Shown: positions 2,059 to 17,280 of the stretch, in pieces
Layout: the number at the start of each line of letters is the position of its first letter
Position numbering within the stretch: position 1 is the stretch's first letter
DNA from: Methanogenium sp. S4BF
GTDB taxonomy: Archaea; Halobacteriota; Methanomicrobia; Methanomicrobiales; Methanomicrobiaceae
Assembly: GCF_029633965.1 (NCBI RefSeq)
Contig: NZ_CP091277.1
Span: 763,940 to 803,939 of the forward strand
DNA: 40,000 nt
Direction: 5' to 3'
Position numbers and translations under genes: made by a program
Notes under the pieces: model-generated
Database searches by the model: none
What the model was told of the DNA's origin: nothing
Seen by the model: the letters and a program-made list of their open reading frames with translations, nothing else

Positions 2059-2718
2059 TTGAGCAAAAAACAACTCTATTACGCTAAAAAAGTAAGAGAA
2101 AAATTACAGGAAAAAGGCATATCTGTTACATGTATTCATGTGAACCTCTTCGATTTACGTGAAGTAATGAAAACAATTTCAAAAATAATCGTAGAAGAAA
2201 AAGCGAAAAATAACCGAATTTTTGTAAACATGTCAGCTGCAGGGAGGCTAACATCAGTGGCAGCAACACTTGTTGGGATGGCTCATGATGTTCAGGTGTA
2301 TTACGTCCATGCTGATGAATATCCTGATGATGAAAAAATCAGAGAAGTTCACGGTTTAAGCATTTGTTCTTCTCAGGAAATTACTCAATTATCAAATTTT
2401 AAAATTGTAATGCCTGACTCTGAAGGTTTAGAAATACTTCTTTTTCTCACGCAAAGAGAGACCGCCAGAATGAGCGATATTTTGGAAATGATGCATGATA
2501 AAAATATTGAAGGTTTCGAGGAGGATTTTAAAATGATTGAACAGTTTAAGAAAAAAAGAAGTGTCCAGAGCAGGCAATTAATGAAACTGGATAAAACGAT
2601 TATTGCTCGGTTAGAAAAAAATGGATTTGTTTTTCGAACCAAAAAGGGGAGAGCTACGTATGTTTCAATAACCGAATCAGGAATTTATGCAGCACATATC
2701 AGTGGGATGATGGAATAA
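2059..2718 (+). CDS. Csa3/CARF-like Rossmann domain plus C-terminal wHTH regulator, apparently missing its first beta-strand by frameshift
   Basis: NMSAAGR fits the CARF-type [DN]-x-[ST]-x3-[RK] loop. The C-terminus (LEILLFLTQRETARMSDILEMM ... IIARLEKNGFVFRTKKGRATYVSITESG) reads as a winged helix. The expected N-terminal strand (MAGIERTIHIIPLGHEIDRAVITF..VDQVYILTG) is encoded at 1922-2062 in a different frame. The listed start is a TTG. Confidence 0.5.
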   Translation: MSKKQLYYAKKVREKLQEKGISVTCIHVNLFDLREVMKTISKIIVEEKAKNNRIFVNMSAAGRLTSVAATLVGMAHDVQVYYVHADEYPDDEKIREVHGLSICSSQEITQLSNFKIVMPDSEGLEILLFLTQRETARMSDILEMMHDKNIEGFEEDFKMIEQFKKKRSVQSRQLMKLDKTIIARLEKNGFVFRTKKGRATYVSITESGIYAAHISGMME

Positions 2719-2809
2719 TTACTGTTATTAATAAACACAATATCATTTTTCAGAAGAATGCTTCGCTATGCGTTTAGTTCAACAGACACGATAAAAGTGA
2801 TTTTCAATA

Positions 2810-2838
2810 GTGGCATTTTTTGTAACTAACTATAACCC
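2810..2838. repeat. Diverged copy of the casposon right-end terminal inverted repeat (right terminus of an older, left-lying element)
   Basis: gtggcattttttgtaactaactataaccc matches 17158-17186 (gtggcgtttttcacaactaactataaccc) at 25/29 positions in direct orientation. The preceding aata is also shared. Confidence 0.75.
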
Positions 2839-2852
2839 TACCCAAAAATGCG
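2839..2852. repeat. Target-site duplication, left copy
   Basis: tacccaaaaatgcg versus gaaccaaaaatgcg at 17187-17200 (12/14 identical). It lies directly outside the left terminal inverted repeat. Confidence 0.7.
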
Positions 2853-2881
2853 GGGTTATAGTTAGTTGTGAAAAACGCCAC
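2853..2881. repeat. Casposon left terminal inverted repeat
   Basis: gggttatagttagttgtgaaaaacgccac is the exact reverse complement (29/29) of 17158-17186. Confidence 0.9.
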
Positions 2882-3069
2882 TTTTACTGAATTTGCAAAT
2901 TTATTTTTCATCTCATCTTTGTCTTGATATTTCCCATAAATAATATAATGAAATTAATTTATGGCATATAAGGACATCCAAGAAATTATACTACCCATCA
3001 TACTACTAACAATACTTATAATATTATATCATTATAAATATTTAATGTCTGAAACGATAATATATTAGT

Positions 3070-4023
3070 ATGTCAAACCACCCGAAGGTTTTCATTAGTC
3101 ATGCTAGTGAGGATAAAGAGAGATTTGTTGTAAAGTTTGCAGAAAGACTGCGTTATGATGGGATAGAAGCTTGGTTAGATAAATGGGAAATATTGCTGGG
3201 TGACAGTCTAGTCCAGAAAATATTTGATGAAGGTTTAGAGCAATCTGATATCATTGCAATAGTAATATCAAAATATAGTATAACTAAAAAATGGGTTAAA
3301 GAAGAGCTTGATTTAGCAGTATATAGAAAAATTGAGGGTAAATGCAGAATAATTCCAATCATTATTGATGATTGCATTGTACCAGAATCAATCAAGCACA
3401 CACTACATGTGAAAATTCAAAATCTCAACAACTATGATGCTGAATACAATGAAATTCGTTCCACAATATTTGGTGAAACAAAAAAGCCTCCACTAGGTGA
3501 ACTTCCACAATATCTAACTGCCGTTCAGATGCACATTGACAAGTTTACACATACTGACAACTACATCGCGGGCATTATTTGTGAAAAGGCATTAGAAGAT
3601 GATTATCCATTTTTTGTAACTCCCACTCAAATATTGCCAATTGTTAGTGGAAATGGCATAACAGAGGATGAATTTTATGATACTATTGAAATAATGGATG
3701 GACGGGGGTATATTGAAGCTGAACAATGTTATGGTGGAGAGATTCCAGCAATTAAAATATCAACATTATTACTTGAAAAGTATTGCAGACAATGCATTGA
3801 TGATTATGACAATAAAGTGGTATCTGTGATTTCAGCCATCGTCAATGAAAATAAGTTGGAAAATTCTGAAATTGCTGCTGAATCTGGAATCAAGCAATCA
3901 ATTGTATCACACATTCTAATCTATCTGGATAATATTGGAAAAATTAAAACCACAACAGCACATGAAGGAGTAGTACTAGTCCACCCCAATAATATGGCAG
4001 AACTGAAGCGATTACTGCGATAG
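3070..4023 (+). CDS. TIR-domain protein with an uncharacterised C-terminal (wHTH-like) domain
   Basis: The N-terminus KVFISHASEDKERFVVKFAERLRYDGIEAWLDKWEILLGDSLVQKIFDEGLEQSDIIAIVISKYSITKKWVKEELDLA follows the prokaryotic TIR pattern: FISH-x-x-x-D, W-D with G-D-S-L, a vvlS strand, and W-x-x-E-L with the candidate catalytic Glu. The C-terminal ~180 aa end in a helix-turn-helix-like stretch (SEIAAESGIKQSIVSHILIYLDNIGKIK). The gene is visibly AT-rich. Confidence 0.8.
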   Translation: MSNHPKVFISHASEDKERFVVKFAERLRYDGIEAWLDKWEILLGDSLVQKIFDEGLEQSDIIAIVISKYSITKKWVKEELDLAVYRKIEGKCRIIPIIIDDCIVPESIKHTLHVKIQNLNNYDAEYNEIRSTIFGETKKPPLGELPQYLTAVQMHIDKFTHTDNYIAGIICEKALEDDYPFFVTPTQILPIVSGNGITEDEFYDTIEIMDGRGYIEAEQCYGGEIPAIKISTLLLEKYCRQCIDDYDNKVVSVISAIVNENKLENSEIAAESGIKQSIVSHILIYLDNIGKIKTTTAHEGVVLVHPNNMAELKRLLR

Positions 4024-4162
4024 AATGAAAATATAATCTATTTTCTGAGGAAGATTAAAAATAATCCTCATGATTACTCTAAGTTGTACTCATCTGGAAT
4101 GACATATTAAATAATTACTTTCACACCACGCGGATAAATATTAAAATATATTATTCTGATCC

Positions 4163-4447
4163 ATGGTTATGCATAAATTATTTAACATCTTCTTTGAAGA
4201 TCTACGAGTAACAATTTGTTTACTCATTGTTCTAGCTGCTCTTGCAGCATTTTTTGGCGCAATCGAACCAATTACAGAAAAATATGTTCAGGATGAAAAT
4301 TCAAAAGAAAACATCGAAAATATTGAATCAATTTCAATAAACGGATTCTCTCTTCTTCTTACTATCAGTGGAATTGGAACTGTTTTGGCTGTGATAGCTT
4401 GGTTTGCGGGTTTATTTGATGGAATCATAAGTATGATAAAAATATAG
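4163..4447 (+). CDS. Small two-TM membrane protein, hypothetical
   Basis: This 94-aa ORF has two hydrophobic helices (VTICLLIVLAALAAFFGAI and FSLLLTISGIGTVLAVIAWFAGLF) separated by an acidic loop. It is AT-rich like the upstream TIR gene. No clear ribosome-binding site is visible. Confidence 0.35.
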   Translation: MVMHKLFNIFFEDLRVTICLLIVLAALAAFFGAIEPITEKYVQDENSKENIENIESISINGFSLLLTISGIGTVLAVIAWFAGLFDGIISMIKI

Positions 4448-4451
4448 AAAT

Positions 4452-5963
4452 TCAACTCTTTTTCAACAAATCCCGCAACTCATCAAGATTAACCAATATC
4501 TGCTTCTCAATACCCTCAATTGTCTCAATGATCACTTCAGGAGGGTCATACTCAATCTCTTCATATTCAATCTCCTTATATCGCGAGATCGAGAGGTCAT
4601 AATTATTCTCCTTCACTTCATCATACGGCACATAGAAGCACTTGCCCTTCCGGTCTTCAGGCACCTCATCCCTCCGGCTCCTAAAGCGCTCGATGATATC
4701 AGGGATGTCACCCTTCCCGTCAATGAGCGTCCGTTTGTCATCCAGTGAAAATCCGTCTGCCTCCATATCATAGAACCAGACTTTCTCCGTTGTCCCACCC
4801 TTCGCAAAGATGAGCACAGCGGTGGAGACCCCTGCATACGGCCTGAATACACCGGACGGCATGGAGACAATACCTTCGACCTGGTTCTCCTCAAGGAGCA
4901 TCTGGCGGAGTTTCTTATGCGCCCGTGAACTCCCGAACATGACACCATCCGGCACGATTACGGCACACCGCCCTCCAATCGTCAGGAGATGAATCATCCG
5001 CTCCACAAACAGAAGCTCCGTCTTTGTCGTGGAAAGGCTCAGGCTGTCGTTAATATCACTCTTGTCGATACTCCCCTTGAACGGTGGATTGGCAAGCACC
5101 ACTGAATACCGCTCCTCCTCATTGTAGAGCTTGGAGAGTGTATCCTTCTGCTCAATCTTCGGCGCCTTGATCCCGTGGAGCATCATGTTCATGAGCGAGA
5201 TGCGGGCCATCGTGGAATCAAAATCATAGCCATAGAACGTATCGCTCCAGAGCTTCTCCCAGTGCCGCTGTTCAGTGATATTGTCCCCGATGAGATTGTG
5301 GTATTCGCCCTCACTGTCCACCTCCAGCATATCGGGACTGGTGTATTTCCGGATAATGTACTCATAGGCGTTGATCAGGAACCCTGCTGTTCCACAGGCA
5401 GGGTCACAGATACGGTCATTGACATCCGGTTCGACCAGTTCCACCATCATCCGGATGATATGCCGGGGCGTCCGGAACTGTCCGTTTTTCCCTGCGGTGG
5501 AGAGTTGGGAGAGAAGATACTCGTAGATGTCACCCTGCGTATCACGATTCTGTGCAGTGATGTCCATCTCATCGATAATGGCAACAGCCTCCTGCAGGAG
5601 GGACGGCTTTGGGATGATGAAGACCGCGTCCCGCATCTGGCGTGCGAAGAGTGTTTTCTCCCCGTTGTGCAGGTTCTTGATGAACGGGAAGACAACATCA
5701 CGGACATGCACGAGCATCTGTTCAGCAGGATAGTGCTTCCAGTTTGACCACCGGCACTCATCCTGTCCCTCAAAGATCGAGGTATAGGCGATGTCCCGTG
5801 CCCGTGCACGGTTCTGCTCGACCACATCCATGTCCTCCAGCCGCTTCATGAAGATGAGATAGGACATCTGTTCAATGGACTGGAGGGGGTTGGACATACC
5901 ACCGCTCCAGAAGCGATCCCAGAGGGTGTCTATCTTTGATTTAAGTTCGGGGGCGAGTTTCAT
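4452..5963 (-). CDS. hsdM: Type I R-M N6-adenine DNA methyltransferase subunit HsdM
   Basis: SAM-binding motif ICDPACGTAGFL, catalytic motif LANPPFKGS, and a typical HsdM N-terminal domain (KIDTLWDRFWSGGMSNPLQSIEQMSYLIFMKRLED). The start overlaps the hsdS stop by 4 nt. Confidence 0.92.
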   Translation of the reverse strand: MKLAPELKSKIDTLWDRFWSGGMSNPLQSIEQMSYLIFMKRLEDMDVVEQNRARARDIAYTSIFEGQDECRWSNWKHYPAEQMLVHVRDVVFPFIKNLHNGEKTLFARQMRDAVFIIPKPSLLQEAVAIIDEMDITAQNRDTQGDIYEYLLSQLSTAGKNGQFRTPRHIIRMMVELVEPDVNDRICDPACGTAGFLINAYEYIIRKYTSPDMLEVDSEGEYHNLIGDNITEQRHWEKLWSDTFYGYDFDSTMARISLMNMMLHGIKAPKIEQKDTLSKLYNEEERYSVVLANPPFKGSIDKSDINDSLSLSTTKTELLFVERMIHLLTIGGRCAVIVPDGVMFGSSRAHKKLRQMLLEENQVEGIVSMPSGVFRPYAGVSTAVLIFAKGGTTEKVWFYDMEADGFSLDDKRTLIDGKGDIPDIIERFRSRRDEVPEDRKGKCFYVPYDEVKENNYDLSISRYKEIEYEEIEYDPPEVIIETIEGIEKQILVNLDELRDLLKKS

Positions 5964-7189
5964 GGTATTAGTTCTCCGGTGAATGCTTTTGATTGAAGTA
6001 ATGCAAATAAATCAGCAATTTCCTGATTAGCTTTAGATTGATCTGTAAAGGCAGAATCAATGTGTTTTAGAGATTGAATGAATTTTTCTTGAAATAATAC
6101 CGGTGGCAACACAACAACACATTTCCTCAAGTCTTTAGTGTTAAAGCTAGCTTGATTCACTGCAGGTTTTGTGATCCTCTTTATTTGGTTCATAAAAAAT
6201 GTGGTTTTAAATTGTGCCACCAAAAAAAATGGGTTTACAAGCTTTCTATTGACATTAATTCGAAATATATTATGACCGACAATAGCTGGAGAATATTCTC
6301 CTTGATATACGGCACTTTTGCCTATTCGGCTAAGACTATTCACGTAATTTAACAGGATATCATCTTTCTTTAAAACATATCGAGTGATGTCTTCAGGCAC
6401 ATCAATGTACTTCAATTTTGTCGCTTTAATGGACATTCCATCATGAATTTCTCCTGAAGTAATGTTGACAGGCCCTTTTCCTTCTGCATTCAATCTTCGT
6501 GATGGGCCAGCTTCAACTTTCTGAATTATACTACCCAGAGTTACTTTTTCCCATCCCTTAGGATTCGTCACCGGGTCACCGAACATCTCCAGAAACACGC
6601 TCTGCACCAGTTCCTGCGTGAGCGCATCCGCATCCGCCCGCAGGCGCTGCGTTGCCTCTGCTTTTTCAAGAATGGCGACAATCTTGCGCTGGGTTTCCAG
6701 ATTTGGAATTGATAATTGTATTTTTCCCAATTCTTTTCTGGGAATACGTTTGCGTGTCGTTCCCCTAGAACGCCGAATAATTTCTTTTCTACATTCTGGA
6801 GAATTAATTGCATATTTCAGCCAGTTCGGATCTATCAATGGATTATCCGGACGCAGAATACAAACATCAACAGCTGTAATACATTTCTTCTCATTTCCAG
6901 GGAAGATGCATGCACGTCCTATTGGATCAGGCATACGAGAAATTAAAATATCCCCCTTTTTTAGGAAAGTGCAATTCAATTCTATCGCTTTTTCTAATGT
7001 TAAAAATTTGTTTGAATTAAATTCAAAATATCCATCTTTAATATCTGCAAGCTGTATCAATCGGACTTGACCAGATGGATCCTGATCCTTACTTTCAACC
7101 CAATCCCCATCCGTGAAAATTCCTTCACTTGATGTCAAGTTAACTATAGAATATTGAATACTTTCTTTATTATTCTCAATTATATTCAA
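5960..7189 (-). CDS. hsdS: Type I R-M specificity subunit HsdS
   Basis: Two target-recognition domains are separated by a central conserved helix (ETQRKIVAILEKAEATQRLRADADALTQELVQSVFLEMFGDP). The C-terminal conserved helix ends ...LLQSKAFTGELIP. It sits between hsdR and hsdM. Confidence 0.88.
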   Translation of the reverse strand: MNIIENNKESIQYSIVNLTSSEGIFTDGDWVESKDQDPSGQVRLIQLADIKDGYFEFNSNKFLTLEKAIELNCTFLKKGDILISRMPDPIGRACIFPGNEKKCITAVDVCILRPDNPLIDPNWLKYAINSPECRKEIIRRSRGTTRKRIPRKELGKIQLSIPNLETQRKIVAILEKAEATQRLRADADALTQELVQSVFLEMFGDPVTNPKGWEKVTLGSIIQKVEAGPSRRLNAEGKGPVNITSGEIHDGMSIKATKLKYIDVPEDITRYVLKKDDILLNYVNSLSRIGKSAVYQGEYSPAIVGHNIFRINVNRKLVNPFFLVAQFKTTFFMNQIKRITKPAVNQASFNTKDLRKCVVVLPPVLFQEKFIQSLKHIDSAFTDQSKANQEIADLFALLQSKAFTGELIP

Positions 7190-7192
7190 TCA

Positions 7193-10030
7193 TCACGCCT
7201 CCGCAACAAACAGTTCCCGTTCCAGTCCCTGACATATGCCAATGAACGCCCTGAGATCGCCCTCGTCAAACATCGGCAGCGGTGCGTTGATGCCAAAATT
7301 GGTGAACGGGGCATCCCAGAGATCTCTCATTTCTATATGCTTTTTGCGCATAAATACCGTCTGAATCGTCCTGATGAAGTGGAGCTGGTCGGCGGTGTAG
7401 TGCTTGTTGTTCTCAGCAATGAAGGTCTGGAACGCCTCCTCGATCTGCTCTTTCGGGTCGGGTGCCTTGTAGAGTCCCAACACAGATTTGATGAAATCAA
7501 CAAGCGTCCCCCGTGGCTGCCGGTAGCCTTTCTGCAGGACTTCCCCGGTGATGTCCACCCCTGCCTCGGTGAGGGTCTCCTCAAGACGGGAGAGGTCGGT
7601 CTCCGTGATTGTCTCATCGTTTGCGATCTTTTGGATGACCGGGTCTTCGGTTGCCATCTCGCGGATTCGTTCTTCCACCTTCTTGACAAACGCGGTGACA
7701 TAGGGAGGGGTGTCCTCGTTCACCTCCCAGATGCTGCGTTCCTCAATCACATCGCCCATGTCGATGACAATCGTCTGGGGCGTCTCCTTGGACATATACT
7801 TCATCAGCGGTGCGATATCAGAAACAAGCATCCGGGTATCCTCGAACGAGACACCCTTCCAGAACGATCGGGAGAGCACGTCATCCAGTTGCTCTTCCTT
7901 CTGCCGGACTTTTTCGAGGTTGCGGGGGAGGAGGTCAACCATCTCAGCGATGGCCTTCTTCTGCCGCTCTATCTCCTTGTCATTCCCTTCTAAGACAGCA
8001 AGCGCAAGCCGTTCGGTCTTGATCGTAAAGGACGCCTCCTTGAGATTGACACCCGTCTGGTAGCGCATCAGGGGCATCATATGGGATGTCAGGTATTCAA
8101 CCGGGTCAACGGCAATATTGTCCCAGAGTTTGGGAGAGAGTGCTTTTGCAATCTCCTGTTCGTGTTCCCGCACACTCACGGAGTCGGAAGGCAGGGCACG
8201 GATATCGTCCTCAATTTTTGCCCGGATCACCGCAGCACGTTCCCCATCTCCCGCCTGTATCAACCGGTCAAGCTGCTTTACCCGCAGGAGAAAGATCCGA
8301 CTGGTAATAGCTTCGATGGGTTCGTTCTTCACCCCTTCCGGGTTCATGTTCCAGTAATCAAAGTTGTTCCAGAAATCGAAGACCTTGAAATACTCCTTCT
8401 TCCCGTTCGGGAGCCAGTCACGGTGTTTGCAGGCCGCATCCGCCCTTGTCCCCCTCCCTAGCATCTGCCAGAACTTGATCCTGGAGAAGACCGGTTTTGC
8501 AAAGACAAGGTTGCAGACCTCCGGTACGTCAATGCCGGTGTCCAGCATGTCGACCGATATGGCAACACGGGGGAATGACTCCTTCTCAAAGTCATGGATG
8601 AGTGCCTGTGCACGGGAATCCTCAGAGACAATAATGCGTGCGAGGTTCCCCTTGTATTCAGGATAGAGGTCATTGAACGCCTCATGAAGCCGGTTCGCAT
8701 GCTTCTTTGATATCGCAAAGAAGATCGTCTTCGCAGGAAGTGTGCCAGTCTCATCCATCTGGCAGTTATCCATGAACTCCCGGACAATTGCTTCAGACGT
8801 GCCCTTCACCGCGATCTTCTTCTCCAGAACAGAGCCATCGAAATCGATCTCGTCCGGGTCGATGCCCTGCTCGATGAGGCGGTTACGTTCGGTCTCGCTC
8901 AGGTCTGAGGGCTTCACCCCTTCAATCTGGAAGTGCGTCTGCGCACCCATGATATTCTTGCGGAAGTCACAGAGGATACCGTCTCGCACTGCCTCCTCAT
9001 ATGAGTAGAGAGCGGTTGGTGCCTGATCATCACACTGGAAGAACCGGAAGGTGTCACGGTCAACAAGGTCTGCCGGTGTTGCAGTCAGCCCGATCTGGAT
9101 GGCATCCAGATACGTGAAGACATCCCGCCATTTATTGTATATACTGCGGTGTGCCTCATCTGAGATGATGAGGTCAAACTCACCAGGCGAGATAAGATAC
9201 TGCCCGTTCTCATCTTTTTGGGTATAGATCTCCTGAAACGTCTGGATGGTGGAGACATAGAGCCGCTTCTCCTTGTTGAAGTTGCCGTGCAGGATTTTGT
9301 CCTTCGCCTCCTGCGGGAAGAACTCCTGAAACCCTTTGTTCCATGCCTGATCCCGCAGTGCCTTTCTGTCTGCGAGGAAGAGCACCCGGTGAGCACGGTT
9401 CTCCTGCATCAGGGCATCGATAATTGCCATCGCGACACGAGTCTTGCCCGTGCCCGTTGCCATCACAATCAACGCCTTCCGGTGTCCCTTCTGGATGTGC
9501 TCCACTATCCGTTTGACATTCTCGATACTCTTCGGGCGGTCAACAATATCGGTATTGACTCCTCTTGGTGTGTCCGGCTGAACCTGCTCGTTCTGGAAGC
9601 GAAGCCGCTCAAGGTCTTTGCGGGCGTAGAACCCGGTCACCAGACGGGGAGGATACCGCTGCCGATCCCAGAACCAGATCTCATAACCGTTTGTGAGAAA
9701 AATGAAGACATCCCGGCCCGTTTGCCTTTTGATGTCGTCTGCATATTTTTCTGCCTGCTTTTGACCGATATTGGGGTCTTTTGATGTCCGCTTTGCCTCG
9801 ATGATGGCAAGGGGATTATTCAGACTGTCCAGCAGGAGATAGTCAGCATATTTACTCTCACGATCATTCTTGAGTGTTTCATCAACAGTTTTGTAGGAAC
9901 AGGCATTGAAATCAGACTGCTTTGTATCAACCTCAGGGATGACATGCGAACGACTGTTCACATCCCAGCCCTGCTCCCTGAGTTGGACATCAATCTTTTG
10001 TTTCCTCGTCTGATGTTCATTGAGATCCAT
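7193..10030 (-). CDS. hsdR: Type I R-M restriction endonuclease/translocase subunit HsdR
   Basis: N-terminal PD-(D/E)xK-like nuclease motif (ADYLLLD...PLAIIEAKR), SF2 helicase Walker A (VMATGTGKTRVA) and DEAH box (LIISDEAHRS). The protein is 945 aa. Confidence 0.92.
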   Translation of the reverse strand: MDLNEHQTRKQKIDVQLREQGWDVNSRSHVIPEVDTKQSDFNACSYKTVDETLKNDRESKYADYLLLDSLNNPLAIIEAKRTSKDPNIGQKQAEKYADDIKRQTGRDVFIFLTNGYEIWFWDRQRYPPRLVTGFYARKDLERLRFQNEQVQPDTPRGVNTDIVDRPKSIENVKRIVEHIQKGHRKALIVMATGTGKTRVAMAIIDALMQENRAHRVLFLADRKALRDQAWNKGFQEFFPQEAKDKILHGNFNKEKRLYVSTIQTFQEIYTQKDENGQYLISPGEFDLIISDEAHRSIYNKWRDVFTYLDAIQIGLTATPADLVDRDTFRFFQCDDQAPTALYSYEEAVRDGILCDFRKNIMGAQTHFQIEGVKPSDLSETERNRLIEQGIDPDEIDFDGSVLEKKIAVKGTSEAIVREFMDNCQMDETGTLPAKTIFFAISKKHANRLHEAFNDLYPEYKGNLARIIVSEDSRAQALIHDFEKESFPRVAISVDMLDTGIDVPEVCNLVFAKPVFSRIKFWQMLGRGTRADAACKHRDWLPNGKKEYFKVFDFWNNFDYWNMNPEGVKNEPIEAITSRIFLLRVKQLDRLIQAGDGERAAVIRAKIEDDIRALPSDSVSVREHEQEIAKALSPKLWDNIAVDPVEYLTSHMMPLMRYQTGVNLKEASFTIKTERLALAVLEGNDKEIERQKKAIAEMVDLLPRNLEKVRQKEEQLDDVLSRSFWKGVSFEDTRMLVSDIAPLMKYMSKETPQTIVIDMGDVIEERSIWEVNEDTPPYVTAFVKKVEERIREMATEDPVIQKIANDETITETDLSRLEETLTEAGVDITGEVLQKGYRQPRGTLVDFIKSVLGLYKAPDPKEQIEEAFQTFIAENNKHYTADQLHFIRTIQTVFMRKKHIEMRDLWDAPFTNFGINAPLPMFDEGDLRAFIGICQGLERELFVAEA

Positions 10031-10123
10031 GCGTTACTCCATTGTGGATAGATATTAAATGAAAAGTTTATTCAAGTCAATAATTGACTCGTTTGGCACC
10101 ATACATCAATGTTATGGAATCTG

Positions 10124-10146
10124 TTTGATATTGCTCAATAATATCA
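10124..10146. promoter_or_regulatory. Perfect 8-bp stem / 7-nt loop inverted repeat between cas1 and hsdR
   Basis: ttgatatt-gctcaat-aatatcaa lies in the AT-rich 186-bp spacer between the cas1 stop (10217) and the hsdR start (10030). It could be a terminator or an operator, and the function is not established. Confidence 0.25.
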
Positions 10147-10216
10147 ACAATACTTCAACGTCAACACCACAAATTGGTTGAATTACCTCAACAGAAAAGA
10201 AAAATGAGAAAGAAAC

Positions 10217-11440
10217 TCAGACAGATAACGTCTCTTTTAGTTGATCCCATACCATCAACCGTTCAACAACGTGTTGATTGAGGGAAAACGGCTTCTCCGA
10301 CTCTGCGTTCTTTTTCATATAATGCAATGAACCTTTTGAGAAACCCAGTTTCTTCCAGTCAGCATACGAAATGCTGAGTATCTTCCTGCGTATCTCATCC
10401 GTATCAACCCTGTCAACCTGATACTCCGGCTTCATGAAACTCACCGACTGTTTCTTCCCGGTCAGATACTGCGCCAGCTCCCTGCCCTTCAGCACCATCA
10501 CATAACTCCACATCAGCTCTTTGCCCTGATACTCAACCGTCTTGTTGAACCATGCGTTGACCTCTTCTGTCATCTTGCGTGCACCCGTGGGCCGTAATCT
10601 CAGTGCATAGCTCTCCGTCCTGATAAAATCCTTCGCGGTCATCGCATCGCGCTCAACGAGGTTGATAACTGCCAGGTCAACAAGAAACCGAAACAACTCC
10701 TGCATATCATAAGCCAGACTGTTCTTGCCGGATTGCATCTCATGAAGGAATCCCACATGTGCATCAAGACCAACACTGTTGATGACCCTGAGACACTCTG
10801 CTTCGAGAAGGGCATACCCATAATTCAGCATGCAGTTGACCTGATCTCCCGCTCCTGAGGGCCGTGTGTGGTAACGTCCCGTCCGGCTCTCAAACTCATA
10901 CTTCTCAGGGATGACTTTGGCAAACTGTTTCCAGTAGTGCTGGGCAACGGCACCCTCAACTCCCATCACTTCCCGGATCAACTTTGCGTCTTTCAGACTC
11001 TTTGGTTCATAGGGAATCACAGGGTCAACACCGGGATACCGCTGGTGCAGATAGTCAAGGACGATCTGTGTGCGGTCAAACTTGGATTCGATGAACTTCT
11101 TCGCCAGTTTCAGTCGCAGTTTCTTATCGTCAAATGCATGGTATTGTACAAACTTCGTCTTCACCTGCACACTCTCCGGAGGGAGCATTGTGGTGAGCAT
11201 CGTTCCATCCCAATCAAGAATGGACACCTGCACATTGTGTTTGACAAGCCACCGGATGGCTTCAAGACTGAGGTTGCCGCTCCTCCCGTAGATCACAATG
11301 GAATCGATATCAATGCGCTGTGGATGGAAGACATACTTCGCAGGCTCCTCTTCGGTAGAGAACCGTCCGTCCGTGATATGAAGGTGTGCACGATCCACTT
11401 TCATGCTGATGCCATGCCCGTTGAGAAGCAGGAACTTCAT
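10217..11440 (-). CDS. cas1: Cas1-family casposase (Cas1 integrase core plus C-terminal HTH)
   Basis: Cas1 catalytic signature residues are present: Glu in REVMGVEGAVAQHYW, His in LDAHVGFLHE, and an acidic pair in SLAYDMQELFRFLVD. It also has NYGYALLE. The C-terminal extension (ILSISYADWKKLGFSKGSLHYMKK) reads as an HTH, as described for casposases. Confidence 0.9.
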   Translation of the reverse strand: MKFLLLNGHGISMKVDRAHLHITDGRFSTEEEPAKYVFHPQRIDIDSIVIYGRSGNLSLEAIRWLVKHNVQVSILDWDGTMLTTMLPPESVQVKTKFVQYHAFDDKKLRLKLAKKFIESKFDRTQIVLDYLHQRYPGVDPVIPYEPKSLKDAKLIREVMGVEGAVAQHYWKQFAKVIPEKYEFESRTGRYHTRPSGAGDQVNCMLNYGYALLEAECLRVINSVGLDAHVGFLHEMQSGKNSLAYDMQELFRFLVDLAVINLVERDAMTAKDFIRTESYALRLRPTGARKMTEEVNAWFNKTVEYQGKELMWSYVMVLKGRELAQYLTGKKQSVSFMKPEYQVDRVDTDEIRRKILSISYADWKKLGFSKGSLHYMKKNAESEKPFSLNQHVVERLMVWDQLKETLSV

Positions 11441-12351
11441 GACCTCATCCCCTTGAACAACCCGTTCAGTTCAGGTGCACCCCTGATGCCTTCCATCGGG
11501 TCGGTTGCATCAAGCGGGTCACTCTCATGCTCTGTTGCATACTTGCGTATCTCTGCGAGAGTATCAGCCTCTTTCACCCGGTCTCCCTTTCGCAGTTCAC
11601 GTTCCAGATTGAATAGTTCCGTGCGGTGTGATTCTATGATAAAGGCGGTGAATGGTGTCAGATAGTCGTTCTTCAGAGATTCAAAGTCATCTGCGTTTCG
11701 GGCATCCTCAATGAGCTGAGATACCACCCTTTCGTCCCTCAGCTTTCCGAGCATGCGGATATGGTGATTACGCATCTGTGCATTTTGCGGCACACTAATG
11801 TCAAACTGTGTAAGGCTTGCACGCAGAAGAACCCTGAACCGGTCTTTGTCAAAAGGCGTGATTTCCCGGATTATGAAATAGTCATAGAGAATTTCGGTAG
11901 CTGCTTTGGCAATATCAGCGTCTTTGGTCAGCAGGTTGACAATCGCGTCTAACTGTTTCGGTGTGAGGATGTATTTGTCACGGTAAAGCCGGATCTCATC
12001 GAGAACCATCCTGATATCCGCTGTGTCACCTTTGGAAAGCAGGTCAAATAATGTGTCAAGATGCTTTTTCCGTTCTGCAAAGGATTTCAGCGTGAGATAA
12101 ACCGCTCTATTGTTGGATTCTTTGATTCCATAGGCTATAAGGTCTGGATTTTGAATTTTTGCAATCATGCCTGCTTTGTTCAAATATTCAATTGCCCTGT
12201 ACAGGCTTGGTTCACTAAAACCTCTTTCACCTTTTTGATTCTCCACGATCTCTCTCACAAGTTTGGAGGTTCTTGTTGGGGGATGAGTGGAGAGATACTG
12301 GAGTATTGCACTATCACTTTTAACATCTGACATTTGACTACCAACATTCAC
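11437..12351 (-). CDS. wHTH DNA-binding protein with an all-helical C-terminal domain, translationally coupled to cas1
   Basis: Its stop overlaps the cas1 start (ATGA at 11437-11440). The N-terminus ILQYLSTHPPTRTSKLVREIVENQKGERGFSEPSLYRAIEYLNKAGMI has a winged-helix pattern. The rest is predicted helical with no recognisable catalytic motif. Confidence 0.6.
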   Translation of the reverse strand: MNVGSQMSDVKSDSAILQYLSTHPPTRTSKLVREIVENQKGERGFSEPSLYRAIEYLNKAGMIAKIQNPDLIAYGIKESNNRAVYLTLKSFAERKKHLDTLFDLLSKGDTADIRMVLDEIRLYRDKYILTPKQLDAIVNLLTKDADIAKAATEILYDYFIIREITPFDKDRFRVLLRASLTQFDISVPQNAQMRNHHIRMLGKLRDERVVSQLIEDARNADDFESLKNDYLTPFTAFIIESHRTELFNLERELRKGDRVKEADTLAEIRKYATEHESDPLDATDPMEGIRGAPELNGLFKGMRS

Positions 12352-12377
12352 TATTATCTTTATATGATATAATATGT

Positions 12378-12409
12378 GCTATCATATTAGCTATCATTAC
12401 TAACGATAG
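12378..12409. promoter_or_regulatory. Candidate operator in the divergent casposon control region
   Basis: gctatcat occurs twice (12378-12385 and 12390-12397). An imperfect 19-bp palindrome ctatcattactaacgatag (12391-12409, 16/19 self-complementary) lies between the divergent wHTH-cas1 and RHH-polB gene sets, in AT-rich TATA-like sequence. Confidence 0.35.
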
Positions 12410-12432
12410 TGTCTGCTCTCCTTCATGAATCT

Positions 12433-12582
12433 ATGAAACCAAAAGAAAAGACCAACAAACTGGTCATTTCTGTTTCGCCGTATCTGAAGGCGAAGATCGT
12501 TGAGACCGCAGACCGCTATGGATGCTCCCAGGCTGAAGTCCTCAGGATGGCGTTCATCCGGATGCTGGAGGCAGACAGATGA
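12433..12582 (+). CDS. Ribbon-helix-helix (CopG/MetJ-like) DNA-binding protein, 49 aa, below the ORF-track cutoff
   Basis: Manual translation gives MKPKEKTNKLVISVSPYLKAKIVETADRYGCSQAEVLRMAFIRMLEADR. It has a beta-strand (KLVISVSPYL) followed by two helices, the classic RHH layout. Its stop overlaps the next ATG (ATGA at 12579-12582). Confidence 0.6.
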   Translation: MKPKEKTNKLVISVSPYLKAKIVETADRYGCSQAEVLRMAFIRMLEADR

Positions 12583-13220
12583 GCCGCAAACGGTTCTCTC
12601 AGGAGTATCGCACCTATGGCGAGTGGCTCAACGCACAACCACGGGAATCACGGTATGCAAAACGTATCATCCGGTTCCACGAACGGTTTCCCGGCAAGAG
12701 CCTGAAAGAGCTGAAGGGTCTCCGCGTCCGGGACTATGACCTGAGTAATAACCCGTGGAATGATCTCTCCCCTGAAGAGAAGCGTGAACGTCTTCTCTCC
12801 CTTGAACTGCTCCGTGCCATGCGGAACGATGAACACTTCTCCCCAAAGCTCAGGGAGCTGGGTCTTTCACGCGACACCGCTGTCAAACACCTTGGCCTGA
12901 ATCTCCGGAAAGAACGTGGATACTGGCACATCAACAAAACAGACCGCATAGAAGTTGAGATGATGATCTATGACCGTGAGAAGGGTCATATTTCGATTCC
13001 TGTTGCAAACTCCGTAGACCGGACACGGATTGCACGATACCATGCCTATGTCCGGTTCGCAATTGAGGATAACAACCCTGCACTCCTGAAGCGGTTTGAG
13101 CAGATGGTTGTTATTGATGCAACCGGTATCCGCTATCGGTTTGAGACCGATGTGGAACGCCTGTATGAGATCAAGGATGCAGAAGAAGAACCGGAATTTT
13201 TCGAGATCTATCAGTCATAG
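12579..13220 (+). CDS. Hypothetical casposon protein (213 aa)
   Basis: A long ORF coupled to the RHH gene upstream and followed 5 nt later by the HNH gene. Its composition resembles the casposon core. I recognise no motif. Confidence 0.6.
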   Translation: MSRKRFSQEYRTYGEWLNAQPRESRYAKRIIRFHERFPGKSLKELKGLRVRDYDLSNNPWNDLSPEEKRERLLSLELLRAMRNDEHFSPKLRELGLSRDTAVKHLGLNLRKERGYWHINKTDRIEVEMMIYDREKGHISIPVANSVDRTRIARYHAYVRFAIEDNNPALLKRFEQMVVIDATGIRYRFETDVERLYEIKDAEEEPEFFEIYQS

Positions 13221-13225
13221 GAGCG

Positions 13226-13600
13226 ATGCATATGGACAAAAATACCTACCGAAAAACAACAGAGAAGATGAAACGGTCAGGGCAGACCGGACACTGCTGC
13301 GTAATGTGTGGAGAAGATAATCCAGCCCTCCTTGAGATGCACCATGTCGATGGAAGAGCGGCATCTGAGAAGACTGTTCCCCTCTGCAAGAACTGTCACG
13401 CAAAGGTCACAATGGAGCAGAACCGTTTCCCTCCGAAAGCCCGTGCTGCCAATGGCCTTCAGGCAGAACAGATTGCATTCTGGCTCCTGAGCCTTGGTGC
13501 ACTTCTGAAATATGTTGGTCAGTCACTCATCGAATTTGCCCATGAGGTTCAGCAGAATGCCGGCGTTAGCAGTGCGTGGATACACTCGAAAACTCAATAA
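13226..13600 (+). CDS. HNH endonuclease
   Basis: CCVMCGEDNPALLEMHHVDGRAASEKTVPLCKNCHAKV gives CxxC ... HH ... CxxCH, the zinc-finger-braced HNH motif. Confidence 0.85.
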   Translation: MHMDKNTYRKTTEKMKRSGQTGHCCVMCGEDNPALLEMHHVDGRAASEKTVPLCKNCHAKVTMEQNRFPPKARAANGLQAEQIAFWLLSLGALLKYVGQSLIEFAHEVQQNAGVSSAWIHSKTQ

Positions 13601-16241
13601 AAAGGGGAAGGGGAAAGGGAAAGCATCCTCATATCCCGACCACCCGCTCAGGCATTCCCGTGTCTTGGTCTTTGATACAGAGACCACTATTGACTGGTTT
13701 CAGAATCTGAAGATCGGATATTTCCAGATCTATCAGGACGACATCTTACAGCATCACGGCCTGATCAACAATAATGCACATCTTGACGAACGTGAACGAA
13801 AGACCCTGAAACGGTATGCAGAGCGTAATTCAATTTCTCTATACTCGCTGAACGAGTTCGTTGATGATGTGTTCTACCGGGAAGTCTTTGACCTGAAAAC
13901 CCTCTGTATTGGGTTCAACCTCCCGTTTGATCTCAGTCGGATTGCTCACAAGGCAGCTCATTCACGCGGACGGAACAAAGGAGGGTTCACCCTCACCCTT
14001 TCGGAAGACCGCATGCAGCCTCCCATTATCGTAAAACAGCTGGGAAGCGCTTACAGCATGAAGTTCAGCTCGACCAAGAAAAACATGAAAAAAGACTTTT
14101 TTGGCGGGTATTTTCTGGACGTGCAGACACTGGCCGAGGTAATGCTTCAGGCAAAACGTGTCTCCCTTCAGCGGGCGGGTGAGATGCTCAACATCAGCCA
14201 TGAGAAATATACCGGAATCTCTCATGGAAGGGTGACGGAGAAATATATCGAATACAACATCCGGGATGTCGAAGCGACCTATGAAGTCTATCGCAGGCTT
14301 GTGCAGGAACTGGATCTCTTCCAGATTGATATCCCTCTCACGAAGGTGTTCAGCTCAGCATCCATCGGAAAGTATGCCCTCAAACAGATGAGTGTCACAC
14401 CATTTCATCAGCAGAACCCTGACTTTCCGGATGCTATTCTCGGTAATATCATGTCAGCGTATTACGGGGGAAGAACGGAGTGCAGGATACGTAAACAGCC
14501 GACCAAGGTGTCGGTGCTTGACTTTACAAGCATGTATCCGACCATCACCATGATTCTGGGTCTCTGGCCTTATCTCATTGCAGATCGTATCGAATCAGTG
14601 GATGCGACTGAAGAGATACAAGCGCTCCTCTCTTCTCTCAATCTTGCTGATTTGCAGAACCCGGATATCTGGAAGGACTTCTGTGTTCTTGTCAAGCTGC
14701 GACCGGATGATGATATCCTTCCGGCGAGGATGGACTATAAAGGGGATGACTCTCCCTATGTGGTCGGACTCAATTACCTCTCCAGTGAAAAGGAGATGTG
14801 GTATGCTCTGCCGGATGTCATCGCCTCGGTGCTACTCACCGGGAAAGTGCCTGATATTCTTGAGGCTGTGCGGTTTGTGCCGGTCGGACAACAGACCAGC
14901 CTTCAGAAGACACAGATCCATAGTGTTGATATTGATCCTCGCAGGGACAATCTGTTTCAGGTGCTGGTTGAAAAGCGGCAGGAGATTAAACAAGACCTCA
15001 AGACCATCTCCAAAGATGATCCAGAACAGCTTCACCTCTCCAGCCAGGCACAGGCCATCAAGATTCTTGTCAATGCGATGAGTTATGGCATCTTCATTGA
15101 ACTCAATCCCGAAGATAAGAAAAGCGCTTTAGAGGTGAATGGGGTTTACTCCTTCACGACTGAAGAGAACCGGCATGAGAAAGAAGGGAAGTATTTCCAC
15201 CCTCTTATGGCGGTAATGATTACCGCAGGGTCACGTCTCTTTCTCGCAATGGCTGAGGCGAAGGTGCTGGAGCTGGGTGGGCAGCATGCCTACATGGATA
15301 CGGATAGTATCTTTGTCCCGCCCGACTTTGCACAGCCTATCCTTGACTTCTTCCAGCCACTGAACCCGTATAGCATTGATATCCCTCTGCTCAAGCCTGA
15401 AAAGGAGGATATGTGGTTCTATGGCATCTCCTCCAAGCGGTATGCTCTCTATTATCTTGACGGTCAGGAGATCCGGTTCATGGAAGGAGAGCGGTCGTAT
15501 AAGCTGCATGGTCTGGGACATCTGGCGAATCCGTTCCCGAACAACGTGAAGGACTGGCAGGCAGAAGTCTGGCAGGACATCCTGCGTATGCACTATGGGT
15601 TTGTTTCATCGATGGAGATCTATGAGAAGTATTCAAAATTTTATGCGGTTTCCCGTCTTTCGGTCTCAACCTCTCATGTATGGAAGAGGTTTGATAGTTT
15701 CAATGAAGGGAAAGCATGGGATGAACAGATTAAGCCGTTCAATTTCTATCTTGCAGGCTTTAAAACGGAGGATGAGAATGGTGTGCCTGTTAAACCGCTA
15801 TGTCCCTTCTCCAAAGACCCGCAGACAATTGTTCACAGGGAGTTCATCGATTATCAGACAGGGGAGAACAAGCAGGGTTCGCACTACTTCAGAGCACTCT
15901 GCCAGACCATTCTTGATTATGCCAATCACCCGGAAAACAAGTTCGATGGGGGTGTTGGTCTGCTTGAGAGGAGACATATTGTGGCTGATGATGTGACTCA
16001 CATCGGAAAGGAAGCTAACAATATTGATGATCAGGCACTGGAAGTTCGGAAGGCTCAGAGGTTTGTCGATAAGGCTGATGTCATGAAGACGATTCTTTCT
16101 ATGTCTCAGAAGATAGCTGAAGAATGTGGGGTGGATAGGAAGACGTTCCAAAGGATGAAGCAGAGGATTCAGGAGAAAGGCGATTTAAATTTGAAGACTC
16201 CAGCTGTTAAAAGGTTGTACTCAAAAAGGTTAATGAATTAA
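13512..16241 (+). CDS. polB: Family B DNA polymerase (casposon PolB, protein-primed-like clade)
   Basis: ExoI VLVFDTETT and ExoII-like YNIRDVEATYEVY. Motif A is VSVLDFTSMYPTI, motif B is AIKILVNAMSYGIFIE and motif C is HAYMDTDSIFV. The start is uncertain: in-frame candidates are ATG 13512, 13542 and 13557 and GTG 13572, all overlapping the HNH gene end. Confidence 0.92.
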   Translation: MLVSHSSNLPMRFSRMPALAVRGYTRKLNKKGKGKGKASSYPDHPLRHSRVLVFDTETTIDWFQNLKIGYFQIYQDDILQHHGLINNNAHLDERERKTLKRYAERNSISLYSLNEFVDDVFYREVFDLKTLCIGFNLPFDLSRIAHKAAHSRGRNKGGFTLTLSEDRMQPPIIVKQLGSAYSMKFSSTKKNMKKDFFGGYFLDVQTLAEVMLQAKRVSLQRAGEMLNISHEKYTGISHGRVTEKYIEYNIRDVEATYEVYRRLVQELDLFQIDIPLTKVFSSASIGKYALKQMSVTPFHQQNPDFPDAILGNIMSAYYGGRTECRIRKQPTKVSVLDFTSMYPTITMILGLWPYLIADRIESVDATEEIQALLSSLNLADLQNPDIWKDFCVLVKLRPDDDILPARMDYKGDDSPYVVGLNYLSSEKEMWYALPDVIASVLLTGKVPDILEAVRFVPVGQQTSLQKTQIHSVDIDPRRDNLFQVLVEKRQEIKQDLKTISKDDPEQLHLSSQAQAIKILVNAMSYGIFIELNPEDKKSALEVNGVYSFTTEENRHEKEGKYFHPLMAVMITAGSRLFLAMAEAKVLELGGQHAYMDTDSIFVPPDFAQPILDFFQPLNPYSIDIPLLKPEKEDMWFYGISSKRYALYYLDGQEIRFMEGERSYKLHGLGHLANPFPNNVKDWQAEVWQDILRMHYGFVSSMEIYEKYSKFYAVSRLSVSTSHVWKRFDSFNEGKAWDEQIKPFNFYLAGFKTEDENGVPVKPLCPFSKDPQTIVHREFIDYQTGENKQGSHYFRALCQTILDYANHPENKFDGGVGLLERRHIVADDVTHIGKEANNIDDQALEVRKAQRFVDKADVMKTILSMSQKIAEECGVDRKTFQRMKQRIQEKGDLNLKTPAVKRLYSKRLMN

Positions 16242-17017
16242 TTCCCTTCTTCTTTTGAATACGCACGTTCTCTTAGGACATTAATGATGTCTGGGTTCCA
16301 AGCTTCTTTATTTCCATGGAGAGATTTTCTTTCAATTATTGCCTGTGCACAACTCCGAAGTTCTTCAGCCCCTTGCGGCTTCCAATCATTTCTCAGTGCC
16401 CATGCTTTTAATGAATCTGGATCAAATAATTCTCCATTGTTTCTTAGAATTCTTAACAACTCAACTGTTTCTCGTTTATCTCTTGGATTTGATAGACCCG
16501 TTGACAAATTAACTCTCCTTGTAAGCGTTTTCATTGCTTCTTCGACAACAGGATTTTTAATCAAATCTTCGAGTTCACTGTGTTCTTCTCCAAGTATTAT
16601 TGGGTTCCATGTTTTCTTCCATTCACCTATTTCATCCATATACCACGGAACAACCACAGCCAGATCAAGATTTTTTACAGAATCTAAAATATCTAACATT
16701 TTCTTGTTTGGATAAACACAAAGAACGATTTCTGATGATGAATAAGAATTGAATGTTTTAATTGTTTCACATTTTAAGACTAAATTATCCGCAATTTTCA
16801 ATTTTTTACCTTTTGAGAGGTTTTTGCAAGGTTTTTCACCTAAAGCCGCGTCAATATCAGTTCCATTAAGCTGGTGTTTGGTTGGTATGAATAATGTAAC
16901 TTCTTTTAAACGTTCAGATTTTTCATTAATCTTAATAATCAGTATCAAAGCTTCGATAATTGACCCCATTTCTCCAAATTTTGGGGGGACGACATATCTT
17001 GAGATATCAGGTGTCAT
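16238..17017 (-). CDS. Hypothetical protein (259 aa), AT-rich cargo gene at the casposon right end
   Basis: An uninterrupted ORF convergent with polB, with overlapping stops. A consensus archaeal TATA box sits about 26 nt upstream of its ATG. Alternating strand/helix pattern in the N-terminal half (VTLFIPTK, IVLCVYPN, LAVVVPW) and a helical C-terminal half. No recognisable motif. Confidence 0.55.
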   Translation of the reverse strand: MTPDISRYVVPPKFGEMGSIIEALILIIKINEKSERLKEVTLFIPTKHQLNGTDIDAALGEKPCKNLSKGKKLKIADNLVLKCETIKTFNSYSSSEIVLCVYPNKKMLDILDSVKNLDLAVVVPWYMDEIGEWKKTWNPIILGEEHSELEDLIKNPVVEEAMKTLTRRVNLSTGLSNPRDKRETVELLRILRNNGELFDPDSLKAWALRNDWKPQGAEELRSCAQAIIERKSLHGNKEAWNPDIINVLRERAYSKEEGN

Positions 17018-17039
17018 AACAATGAATTATTCACTTAGC

Positions 17040-17047
17040 TATTTAAA
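17040..17047 (-). promoter_or_regulatory. TATA box for the 259-aa cargo gene
   Basis: The minus strand reads TTTAAATA, centred about 26 nt upstream of the ATG at 17017. This implies a leaderless or near-leaderless transcript. Confidence 0.4.
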
Positions 17048-17157
17048 TGAAAGTCAGATTATAATGCAGTCATGTTTTCAAAAAAAAGATTGTTTAGGTA
17101 AATTTAGATTGTCACATCCTAAATGGATGACTTTGAGTAAAAGGGTTGAACAAAATA

Positions 17158-17186
17158 GTGGCGTTTTTCACAACTAACTATAACCC
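17158..17186. repeat. Casposon right terminal inverted repeat
   Basis: gtggcgtttttcacaactaactataaccc is the exact reverse complement of 2853-2881. Confidence 0.9.
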
Positions 17187-17200
17187 GAACCAAAAATGCG
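17187..17200. repeat. Target-site duplication, right copy (overlaps the tRNA-Leu 3' end)
   Basis: gaaccaaaaatgcg matches 2839-2852 at 12/14. It covers the oligo-T tract downstream of the tRNA, the discriminator base and the last 3 acceptor-stem nucleotides. Confidence 0.7.
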
Positions 17201-17280
17201 AGGGGAGGGATTCGAACCCGCGAACTCCTACGAGACTGGGCCCTAAACCCAGCGCCTTTGACCGACTCGGCAACCCTCGC
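17197..17280 (-). tRNA. tRNA-Leu (anticodon UAG), class II with long variable arm
   Basis: The reverse complement reads GCGAGGGTTGCCGAGTCGGTCAAAGGCGCTGGGTTTAGGGCCCAGTCTCGTAGGAGTTCGCGGGTTCGAATCCCTCCCCTCGC plus discriminator A. It has a 7-bp acceptor stem and an anticodon stem CTGGG/CCCAG with loop TTTAGGG, giving anticodon TAG. It also has a long variable arm and a GTTCGAATC T-loop. CCA is not encoded, and a TTTTT tract follows. Confidence 0.9.

Follow-up and report, generated by a model that had tools for sequence, protein, structure and literature searches.

We propose, with a probability of roughly 0.8, that the window (the whole 40,000-nt stretch of Methanogenium sp. S4BF analyzed here, contig NZ_CP091277.1) holds at positions 2853-17186 an apparently intact family-2 casposon, seated at the 3' end of a tRNA-Leu(UAG), which carries in a slot behind its casposase gene cas1 a complete type I restriction-modification (R-M) operon together with a TIR-domain gene, captured from a Methanomicrobiales pool. 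Set beside its relatives, the slot itself, which appears to take up interchangeable defense systems, is a more notable result than the hsd genes that now fill it.

The type I operon and the ends of the casposon

The R-M genes, the casposase gene that precedes them and the spacer in between are laid out as follows:

4452-5963, minus strand: hsdM, gamma-class N6-adenine methyltransferase subunit, 503 aa; HsdM_N and N6_Mtase (4.5e-64), PADLOC MTase_I over its full length (2e-176)
5960-7189, minus strand: hsdS, specificity subunit, 409 aa, TTG start; two Methylase_S stretches, PADLOC Specificity_I (6e-78)
7193-10030, minus strand: hsdR, restriction/translocase subunit, 945 aa; HSDR_N, ResIII (8e-40), Helicase_C, EcoEI_R_C (3e-23), PADLOC REase_I (1e-137)
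10031-10216, minus strand: intergenic spacer between cas1 and hsdR, 186 bp, 31.7% G+C
10217-11440, minus strand: cas1, casposase, 407 aa; Cas_Cas1 (2e-65), NCBIfam cas1 (4e-62)

The type I system is complete and, as far as its sequence tells, apparently working. The original prediction had described hsdR, hsdS and hsdM as intact and furnished with their expected motifs, and both profiles and translations agree with it. The HsdR translation contains the D...EAK nuclease motif (YLLLD...IIEAK), Walker A GTGKT, DEAH, TATP and QMLGRGTR, and that of HsdM contains DPACGTAGFL and NPPF. In HsdS, the PADLOC Specificity_I profiles are matched to their C-terminal end, and the two stretches correspond to two target-recognition domains. 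The nearest solved structure to HsdR is PDB 3H1T (5e-47); against the NCBIfam EcoAI/FtnUII HsdR model it reaches 263.7 bits where the cut-off is 550, which makes it a relative of that family and not a member. With a 4-bp overlap (ATGA) between hsdS and hsdM and only 3 bp between hsdR and hsdS, the three genes form one operon. By their substitution pattern, hsdR and hsdM are under purifying selection (dN/dS of 0.05-0.07 and 0.05-0.08, respectively, against the copies in loci L011 and L008, described below); for cas1, dN/dS is 0.08. Moreover, HsdS is just 33-35% identical in amino acids to the HsdS of cassettes whose HsdR and HsdM stay at 92-96%, while a central stretch of hsdS (6541-6700) is conserved at 90-93% nucleotide identity. 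Such divergence of HsdS beside stable HsdR and HsdM is the pattern expected of, and the usual signature for, specificity turnover in working type I systems.

The ends of the casposon are defined by the following features:

2839-2852: left copy of the target-site duplication, TACCCAAAAATGCG, 14 bp, common to a neighboring element (element A)
2853-2885: left terminal inverted repeat, on the cas1/cargo side, 33 nt, 97% complementary to 17154-17186, with the first 30 nt identical
17154-17186: right terminal inverted repeat, 33 nt
17187-17200: right copy of the target-site duplication, GAACCAAAAATGCG, overlapping the last 4 nt of the tRNA
17197-17280, minus strand: tRNA-Leu (anticodon UAG), found with ARAGORN, the integration target

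Between these ends lie 14.3 kb with the anatomy of a family-2 casposon. In the window, the only inverted partner of the right repeat is 2853-2885, and the search for repeats found none between cas1 and hsdR; the two copies of the duplication agree at 12 of 14 positions, the right one overlapping the 3' end of the tRNA-Leu. The placement of a whole type I system inside the casposon, as first proposed, is upheld by these boundaries. The proposal that the hsd genes occupy ~5.6 kb of the arm between the left terminus and cas1 holds, with one correction: hsdM does not reach the left terminus, from which it is separated by the TIR-domain gene (3070-4023) and a 94-aa open reading frame (ORF).

The hsd genes lie on the cas1 strand directly downstream of cas1, behind an AT-rich 186-bp spacer that contains an exact 8-bp inverted repeat (10125-10132 and 10140-10147), all of which the coordinates and the G+C content bear out. 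Taken whole, the spacer shows no more folding than its shuffled versions do (z = 0.01), and the 8-bp hairpin is thus without weight. T-runs stand directly 3' of the cas1 stop codon, and a TATA-like TTTAATAT stands 21 nt ahead of the hsdR ATG, both read by eye and neither being evidence of function. The operon is probably independent of read-through from cas1, because the same DNA precedes hsdR in L008 and L011, where cas1 is absent; we infer that hsd would be expressed from a promoter within the spacer.

Comparison with related casposons and cassettes

A casposon of Methanogenium cariaci (loci L001, L002, and L092) occupies the same tRNA-Leu as the window element. From polB to cas1 the two cores are 92.5% identical in nucleotides, against just 78.9% for the flanking host DNA on the far side of the tRNA; the casposons thus postdate the divergence of their hosts, an argument for recent mobility. 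The stretch of high identity ends at window position 10134, 83 bp past the cas1 stop codon. Beyond this point the M. cariaci slot contains no hsd genes; it holds Avs2, then a CARF-wHTH gene, then the terminal repeat. Its Avs2 is a single 1529-aa ORF in the cleaner assembly and was matched by PADLOC at E values of 1e-136 and 0 on the two pieces into which it falls in the draft assembly. In L092, the right repeat is followed by a duplication-like sequence and by a degenerate extra terminal repeat (18004-18023), with a possible degenerate partner near 19524-19543 and a DUF3375 gene next to it (19840 onward), which suggests that the M. cariaci locus, too, is a tandem array.

The segment of the spacer next to cas1 (10134-10216) belongs to the casposon backbone and is common to casposons without hsd genes, with counterparts in L092 (~11225-11307), L012 (~8433-8565), L008, and L011. 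Identity of the window over these 83 bp amounts to 76-88% with the two casposons that lack hsd (M. cariaci and L012) and to 68-77% with L008 and L011; with L012, blastn stretches the match to ~130 bp. No homology to hsd-free casposons is claimed for the distal 103 bp of the spacer, which align at just 52-58%. A terminator, a cargo promoter or a recombination site are candidate roles for the post-cas1 segment.

The nearest relatives of HsdR (95-96% amino acid identity) do not adjoin cas1. Window positions 4362-10246 match L008-L010 and L011 at 87.5-91.6% nucleotide identity over hsdM and over hsdR together with the region upstream of it, the recognition domains of hsdS being unmatched. In L011, which is the chromosome of Methanoplanus sp. 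FWC-SCC4 (CP043875.1, 9815-16076), the order is post-cas1 segment, hsdRSM, a 57-aa ORF, one terminal repeat, and a tRNA-Leu(UAG); the 20-nt core of the repeat is identical at all 20 positions to that of the window, the whole arrangement faces the tRNA the other way round than in the window, and neither cas1, polB nor a second repeat was found in 22.8 kb. In L008 and L009, the cassette (9785-15577) stands between a Prim-Pol gene (910 aa) and a gene for a Cdc6-like ATPase, near a tRNA-Phe, and L008 also keeps ~30 bp resembling the 3' end of cas1; this locus is probably a further integrated element, into which a piece of a casposon was taken up. L009 and L012 (the casposon with a Cas1 95% identical to that of the window) were recovered from a single metagenome. 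In both L008 and L011, hsdR is preceded by the segment that M. cariaci and L012, whose casposons lack hsd, have behind cas1. Hence, they are most simply read as remnants of hsd-bearing casposons whose cores have been lost. The claim that the element spreads a restriction system thus gains support by comparison, with the cassette and the post-cas1 DNA standing beside a casposon repeat at the tRNA-Leu of L011. More distant hsd operons (HsdR 78-82% identical) adjoin an IF-2 gene or belong to an island that also contains GmrSD, HicB, and Fic, with unrelated DNA upstream and no repeat. The clade of the window HsdR is archaeal, with members in Methanomicrobiales and Methanosarcinales, and a scan of viral contigs returned one fragment only.

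The position filled by hsd in the window is filled by other systems in the closest relatives: type I R-M, Avs2, Dsr1, PD-Lambda-4, and an Avs4-like protein are found in five relatives with Cas1 at least 85% identical, which makes it a hotspot. The wider survey took in 80 metagenome loci (Cas1 54-96%), from which ~30 large post-cas1 ORFs were scanned with Pfam and PADLOC, and is a sample and not a census. Beside the window and M. cariaci, the slot contents are as follows:

L012 (Cas1 95%): Dsr1 (E 0, full length); the element ends are not on the contig
L003 (Cas1 86%): PD-Lambda-4_A (2e-75, full length), inside mapped repeats
L004-L007 (Cas1 86%): 1800-aa Avs4-like STAND NTPase, inside mapped repeats, at a tRNA-Leu(UAA)
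L021 and L030: type IIG enzymes, inside mapped terminal repeats
L033: type III mod-res pair, inside mapped terminal repeats
L053: type IV enzyme, inside mapped terminal repeats
L016: Mrr-NACHT-WD40 protein, inside mapped terminal repeats
L066 and L078: type III pairs, position relative to the element ends not mapped
L037: C5-methyltransferase with a nuclease-like neighbor, position relative to the element ends not mapped
L051: NB-ARC protein, position relative to the element ends not mapped
L089: long type I-like methyltransferase, position relative to the element ends not mapped
L079, 11154-19270: type I system of another family, with hsdR (1049 aa), hsdS (430 aa), and the hsdM C terminus at the contig end

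The survey of relatives for R-M cargo that the original prediction had called for thus returned enzymes of types IIG, III, and IV inside mapped repeats, and R-M cargo is, to judge from these loci, common in this casposon clade. That the R-M genes might lie outside the true boundaries of the element, which was named as the finding that would speak against carriage, is not what the relatives show: the region behind cas1 is internal cargo in L004, L003, L021, L030, L033, L053, and L016. In the survey sample, the window is the only locus in which a type I system has been verified inside the element ends. The type I system of L079 stands 4 kb past the cas1 of a distant casposon relative, with a RadC gene and a 761-aa ORF without a family in between; the search for the ends of this element gave just a 13-nt inverted match (E 0.05). 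About 10 of the ~30 scanned ORFs had no match. Among the large slot ORFs without a Pfam or PADLOC family (628-1502 aa) are those at 3390-5948 of L024, 12165-15767 of L044, 3309-7817 of L062, 11154-13439 of L079, and 14257-16143 of L045; all are candidates for new defense genes.

Two observations concern the cores of these casposons. In L004-L007, cas1 (e.g., 10001-11210 of L004) carries a frameshift near residue 330 that breaks it in two, seen in each of four independent assemblies, and the casposon bearing the Avs4-like protein may be immobile. In L012, the core (2462-8432) is a mosaic in comparison with the window, with Cas1 95%, the product of the 304-aa gene upstream of cas1 83%, PolB 56%, and the HNH-like nuclease 42% identical, which implies recombination between casposon cores. 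It is plausible that cargo is swapped by recombination in the conserved cas1 3' end and post-cas1 segment within tandem arrays. Altogether, we regard it as evenly poised whether casposons of this archaeal lineage possess a dedicated slot after cas1, behind a conserved noncoding segment, in which whole immunity systems (type I, IIG, III, and IV restriction, Avs2, Avs4-like STAND NTPase, Dsr1, PD-Lambda-4) are replaced on short timescales; such casposons would be regular vehicles of defense among methanogens, would repeatedly place Cas1 beside innate effectors, and would be able to decay into fixed defense loci.

Other genes of the casposon and its neighborhood

The genes of the element other than cas1 and hsd are the following:

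3070-4023, plus strand: TIR-domain protein gene, 317 aa, second cargo gene; Pfam TIR_2 (9e-26)
4163-4447, plus strand: 94-aa ORF, convergent with hsdM; weak Yip1 match only, possibly a membrane protein
11437-12351, minus strand: 304-aa gene, conserved, preceding cas1 with a 4-bp overlap
12579-13220, plus strand: conserved 213-aa core gene, present in nearly all related loci
13226-13600, plus strand: HNH-like nuclease gene, 124 aa; weak HNH and RecA_dep_nuc matches, kept in relatives
13512-16241, plus strand: polB, family B DNA polymerase, 909 aa, uninterrupted; DNA_pol_B_2 and DNA_pol_B
16238-17017, minus strand: 259-aa ORF in the PolB-side arm; no family match in Pfam, PADLOC, or NCBIfam

The window Cas1 is identical to WFN35245.1 and HsdR to WFN35244.1, consecutive accessions of Methanogenium sp. 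S4BF, and the best named relatives of this Cas1 are those of Methanolobus, Methanoregula formicica, and Methanococcoides (60-69% identity). No cas2 was seen among the annotated ORFs of the element, no search for CRISPR arrays having been made. The 304-aa gene, the putative wHTH gene of the original prediction, has no match in Pfam, NCBIfam, or PADLOC and adjoins cas1 in most of the related casposons searched. PolB is 91% identical to the M. cariaci copy and conserved in relatives, and the PolB-side arm differs between the window and M. cariaci casposons. The TIR-domain protein matches PADLOC profiles PDC-S66 (7e-26), bSEFIR (5e-21), and ThsB (2e-12), with a possible C-terminal winged helix, and is a candidate defense effector; a search of 91 loci (L001-L091) turned up no homologue. 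As for the 94-aa ORF, its last 86 bp fall inside the stretch in common with the L008 cassette, which starts at 4362.

On its left, the casposon abuts, in a head-to-head arrangement, the end of a second, casposon-like element (element A, 1-2838), which runs off the window. A third copy of the terminal repeat (2806-2838), oriented like the right repeat, belongs to element A and stands 14 bp from the left repeat, so that the casposon is the tRNA-proximal member of a tandem array. Element A comprises a CARF-wHTH gene (2059-2718; PADLOC CARF3, 3e-83), the product of which has a shorter N terminus than the 249-265-aa M. cariaci copy, a 190-aa ORF without a family match, and an N-terminally truncated hsdS-like gene (46-915); at 90% identity, its stretch 1603-2838 matches the M. 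cariaci casposon at the cas1-side end. The hsdS-like gene lacks the first recognition domain and is just 27% identical to the hsdS of the casposon, and there is no basis for a system of hsdS shuffling. The casposon has a G+C content of 45.6%, compared with 52.8% for the host flank (17426-40000), in which genes for a SAM methyltransferase and an AI-2E transporter were seen together with an ORF matching the NADH-dehydrogenase (NADHdh) family.

Competing explanations, known systems and significance

In the explanation that we favor, the casposon would have captured its hsd operon from the related operons present in defense islands of Methanomicrobiales, and this capture would have set hsdR directly behind the casposon's own noncoding region downstream of cas1. 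The casposase would act on both terminal repeats and PolB would copy the intervening DNA, and the operon (5.6 kb) and the TIR-domain gene, since they lie between both repeats, would move as passengers. The host would gain a methylation-based restriction of unmethylated incoming DNA; the element would gain a host that benefits from its upkeep, and perhaps protection against rival mobile DNA. Upon decay of the casposon, the R-M cargo could persist as an ordinary chromosomal defense locus. Mobility at the present day, activity in restriction and methylation, and a benefit in fitness are what we infer from the genes and their surroundings.

Several observations weigh against this explanation or the slot that extends it. 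The target-site duplication is imperfect (12 of 14 positions), so that integration was either not recent or not exact, and with the tandem array the present unit could be a recombinant of two older elements. The copies in Methanoplanus and in the metagenomes point to a past joining to casposon DNA, not to carriage by a complete casposon. The Dsr1 of L012 lies on a contig that does not reach the element ends. With the subunits of the window as queries, tblastn found no relative of HsdR in any of the 56 related loci whose sequence runs on for at least 1.5 kb past cas1, and no other type I system with HsdR and HsdM over all 91 loci; this absence is a weak negative, as the divergent L079 system was missed in this way and later caught by PADLOC and Pfam. 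That system, unmapped relative to the element ends, is the one further complete type I system found near a casposon core among the selected cargo ORFs scanned with PADLOC and Pfam.

The hsd genes might instead have been inserted in situ into a resident, immobile casposon that never moved them, as a by-product of a recombination-prone tRNA-Leu island. Tandem arrays of casposon-derived elements in both Methanogenium genomes and the frequency of related hsd operons in ordinary defense islands would fit such a history, yet in another genus the same cassette, with its post-cas1 DNA, adjoins a casposon repeat at tRNA-Leu and is oriented the other way round, and in a third context (L008) it retains a remnant of the cas1 3' end; with a casposon core much younger than the divergence of the hosts, and with cas1, polB, and both repeats intact, we consider insertion in situ rather improbable. 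Less remote, though still unlikely, is a chimeric origin, in which a cargo arm (left repeat, TIR-domain gene, hsdMSR) and a core arm (cas1, polB, right repeat) came from two casposons of the array and were joined by homologous recombination in the cas1 3' end and post-cas1 region. The tandem arrangement with its third repeat copy, the existence of mosaic cores (Cas1 95% and PolB 56% in L012), and the breakpoint relative to the sister element, which falls in the conserved noncoding segment, are all in its favor. Its product would still be flanked by repeats, and a chimeric origin is therefore compatible with the capture and carriage that we favor; it describes how cargo is swapped and is no alternative to carriage.

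The function of the operon may also be read differently. The original prediction had mentioned an addiction module, and the R-M system could serve mainly to stabilize the casposon by post-segregational killing instead of defending the host. Type II R-M systems can act as addiction modules, and the joint presence of methyltransferase and endonuclease on a mobile element fits this pattern. Type I systems are not classical addiction modules, and their gain and loss are generally tolerated (restriction alleviation of the EcoKI type). Given this tolerance, given that the slots of relatives contain antiviral sensors and effectors (Avs2, Dsr1, PD-Lambda-4, STAND NTPases), and given that the cassette outlives the casposon core in L011, we rate addiction as improbable. 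Still fainter is the prospect that the operon is a decaying or silent passenger without current function: all three subunits miss the NCBIfam equivalog cut-offs, but their ORFs are full length with all catalytic motifs, the PADLOC type I profiles are matched end to end, dN/dS is 0.05-0.08, and the layout of the operon is translationally coupled.

The element resembles the family-2 casposons described in methanogens (MetMaz-C1, MetFor-C1, MetPsy-C1, MetTin-C1, and MetBur-C1; PMC4046053, PMC4779613) in its PolB, its HNH gene, the conserved gene upstream of cas1, and a Cas1 that shares 60-69% identity with its counterparts in the named host genera, as well as in its terminal inverted repeats, its 14-bp duplication, its site at the 3' end of a tRNA-Leu, and its place in a tandem array sharing a copy of the duplication. 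Methanosarcina casposons, too, are known to form such arrays at tRNA-Leu (PMC4779613). The host differs, as Methanogenium (Methanomicrobiales) is not mentioned in the main texts of these two studies, and so does the cargo. The description of 2014 listed N6 and C5 methyltransferases, each by itself, and one putative restriction nuclease (PMC4046053), and the two studies together report these, Sir2-like and other single genes (PMC4046053, PMC4779613), whereas the window element holds a three-gene type I operon and a TIR-domain gene. The suggestion that a type I system in a casposon was possibly new thus stands for type I specifically; it does not stand for R-M cargo in general, given the methyltransferases and nuclease already described (PMC4046053) and the type IIG, III, and IV enzymes of relatives. 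Neither a type I system nor a defense slot in casposons is reported in the literature that we searched, which included the 2014 description (PMC4046053), the Methanosarcina study of 2016, the thaumarchaeal survey of 2019, and the review and the in vivo study of 2023, the 2017 review not being covered. It appears that neither the combination of type I R-M and casposon nor the swappable slot has been described before; taken singly, both casposon and R-M system are ordinary representatives of known families. Among type I systems, the EcoAI/EcoEI (type IB-like) lineage is nearest, having in common with the window operon the three subunits, an HsdR with PD-ExK nuclease, SF2 motor, and EcoEI_R_C, an HsdM with NPPF, an HsdS with two recognition domains, and rapid divergence of HsdS; the window operon differs from it in its gene order R-S-M, its archaeal clade, and an HsdR at 264 bits against the cut-off of 550.

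Hotspots of defense genes are likewise found in Tn7-like transposons, P2/P4 phages, and integrative and conjugative elements. The defense hotspots of pipolins offer a close parallel, with a conserved core for mobility and replication beside a fixed position for interchangeable complete defense systems (PMC11551731); here, unlike in pipolins and the other carriers, the vehicle is an archaeal transposon that encodes PolB and depends on Cas1. In a PADLOC analysis of 48 published casposons, the 2024 pipolin study counted fewer defense genes than in pipolins, and it described no slot (PMC11551731). For the origin of CRISPR-Cas adaptation, it has been proposed that a casposon came to lie beside an innate effector locus and then lost a terminal repeat and polB (PMC9939771). 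The casposons studied here are like this scenario in that cas1 adjoins innate immunity genes and in that the L011 locus has decayed by losing one repeat and the core with its defense genes kept; in L011, however, cas1 was lost and the cargo retained, and the likeness is an analogy only.

Casposons have been studied mainly as ancestors of the CRISPR adaptation machinery, and their cargo has received little attention. Our analysis indicates that a Cas1/PolB transposon can enclose a complete multisubunit restriction system, and casposons would thereby join the mobile elements that distribute immunity, here in methanogenic archaea, where the mobility of defense is poorly known. In these loci, nature would also offer examples of cas1 standing beside innate effectors, and of the decay by which such elements turn into defense loci of the host. 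As a practical handle, the casposon ends and the conserved post-cas1 segment may be used to search for new archaeal defense genes. If casposons are indeed regular carriers of defense, the arrangement of cas1 beside an effector would be of the very kind that has been proposed for the birth of CRISPR-Cas.

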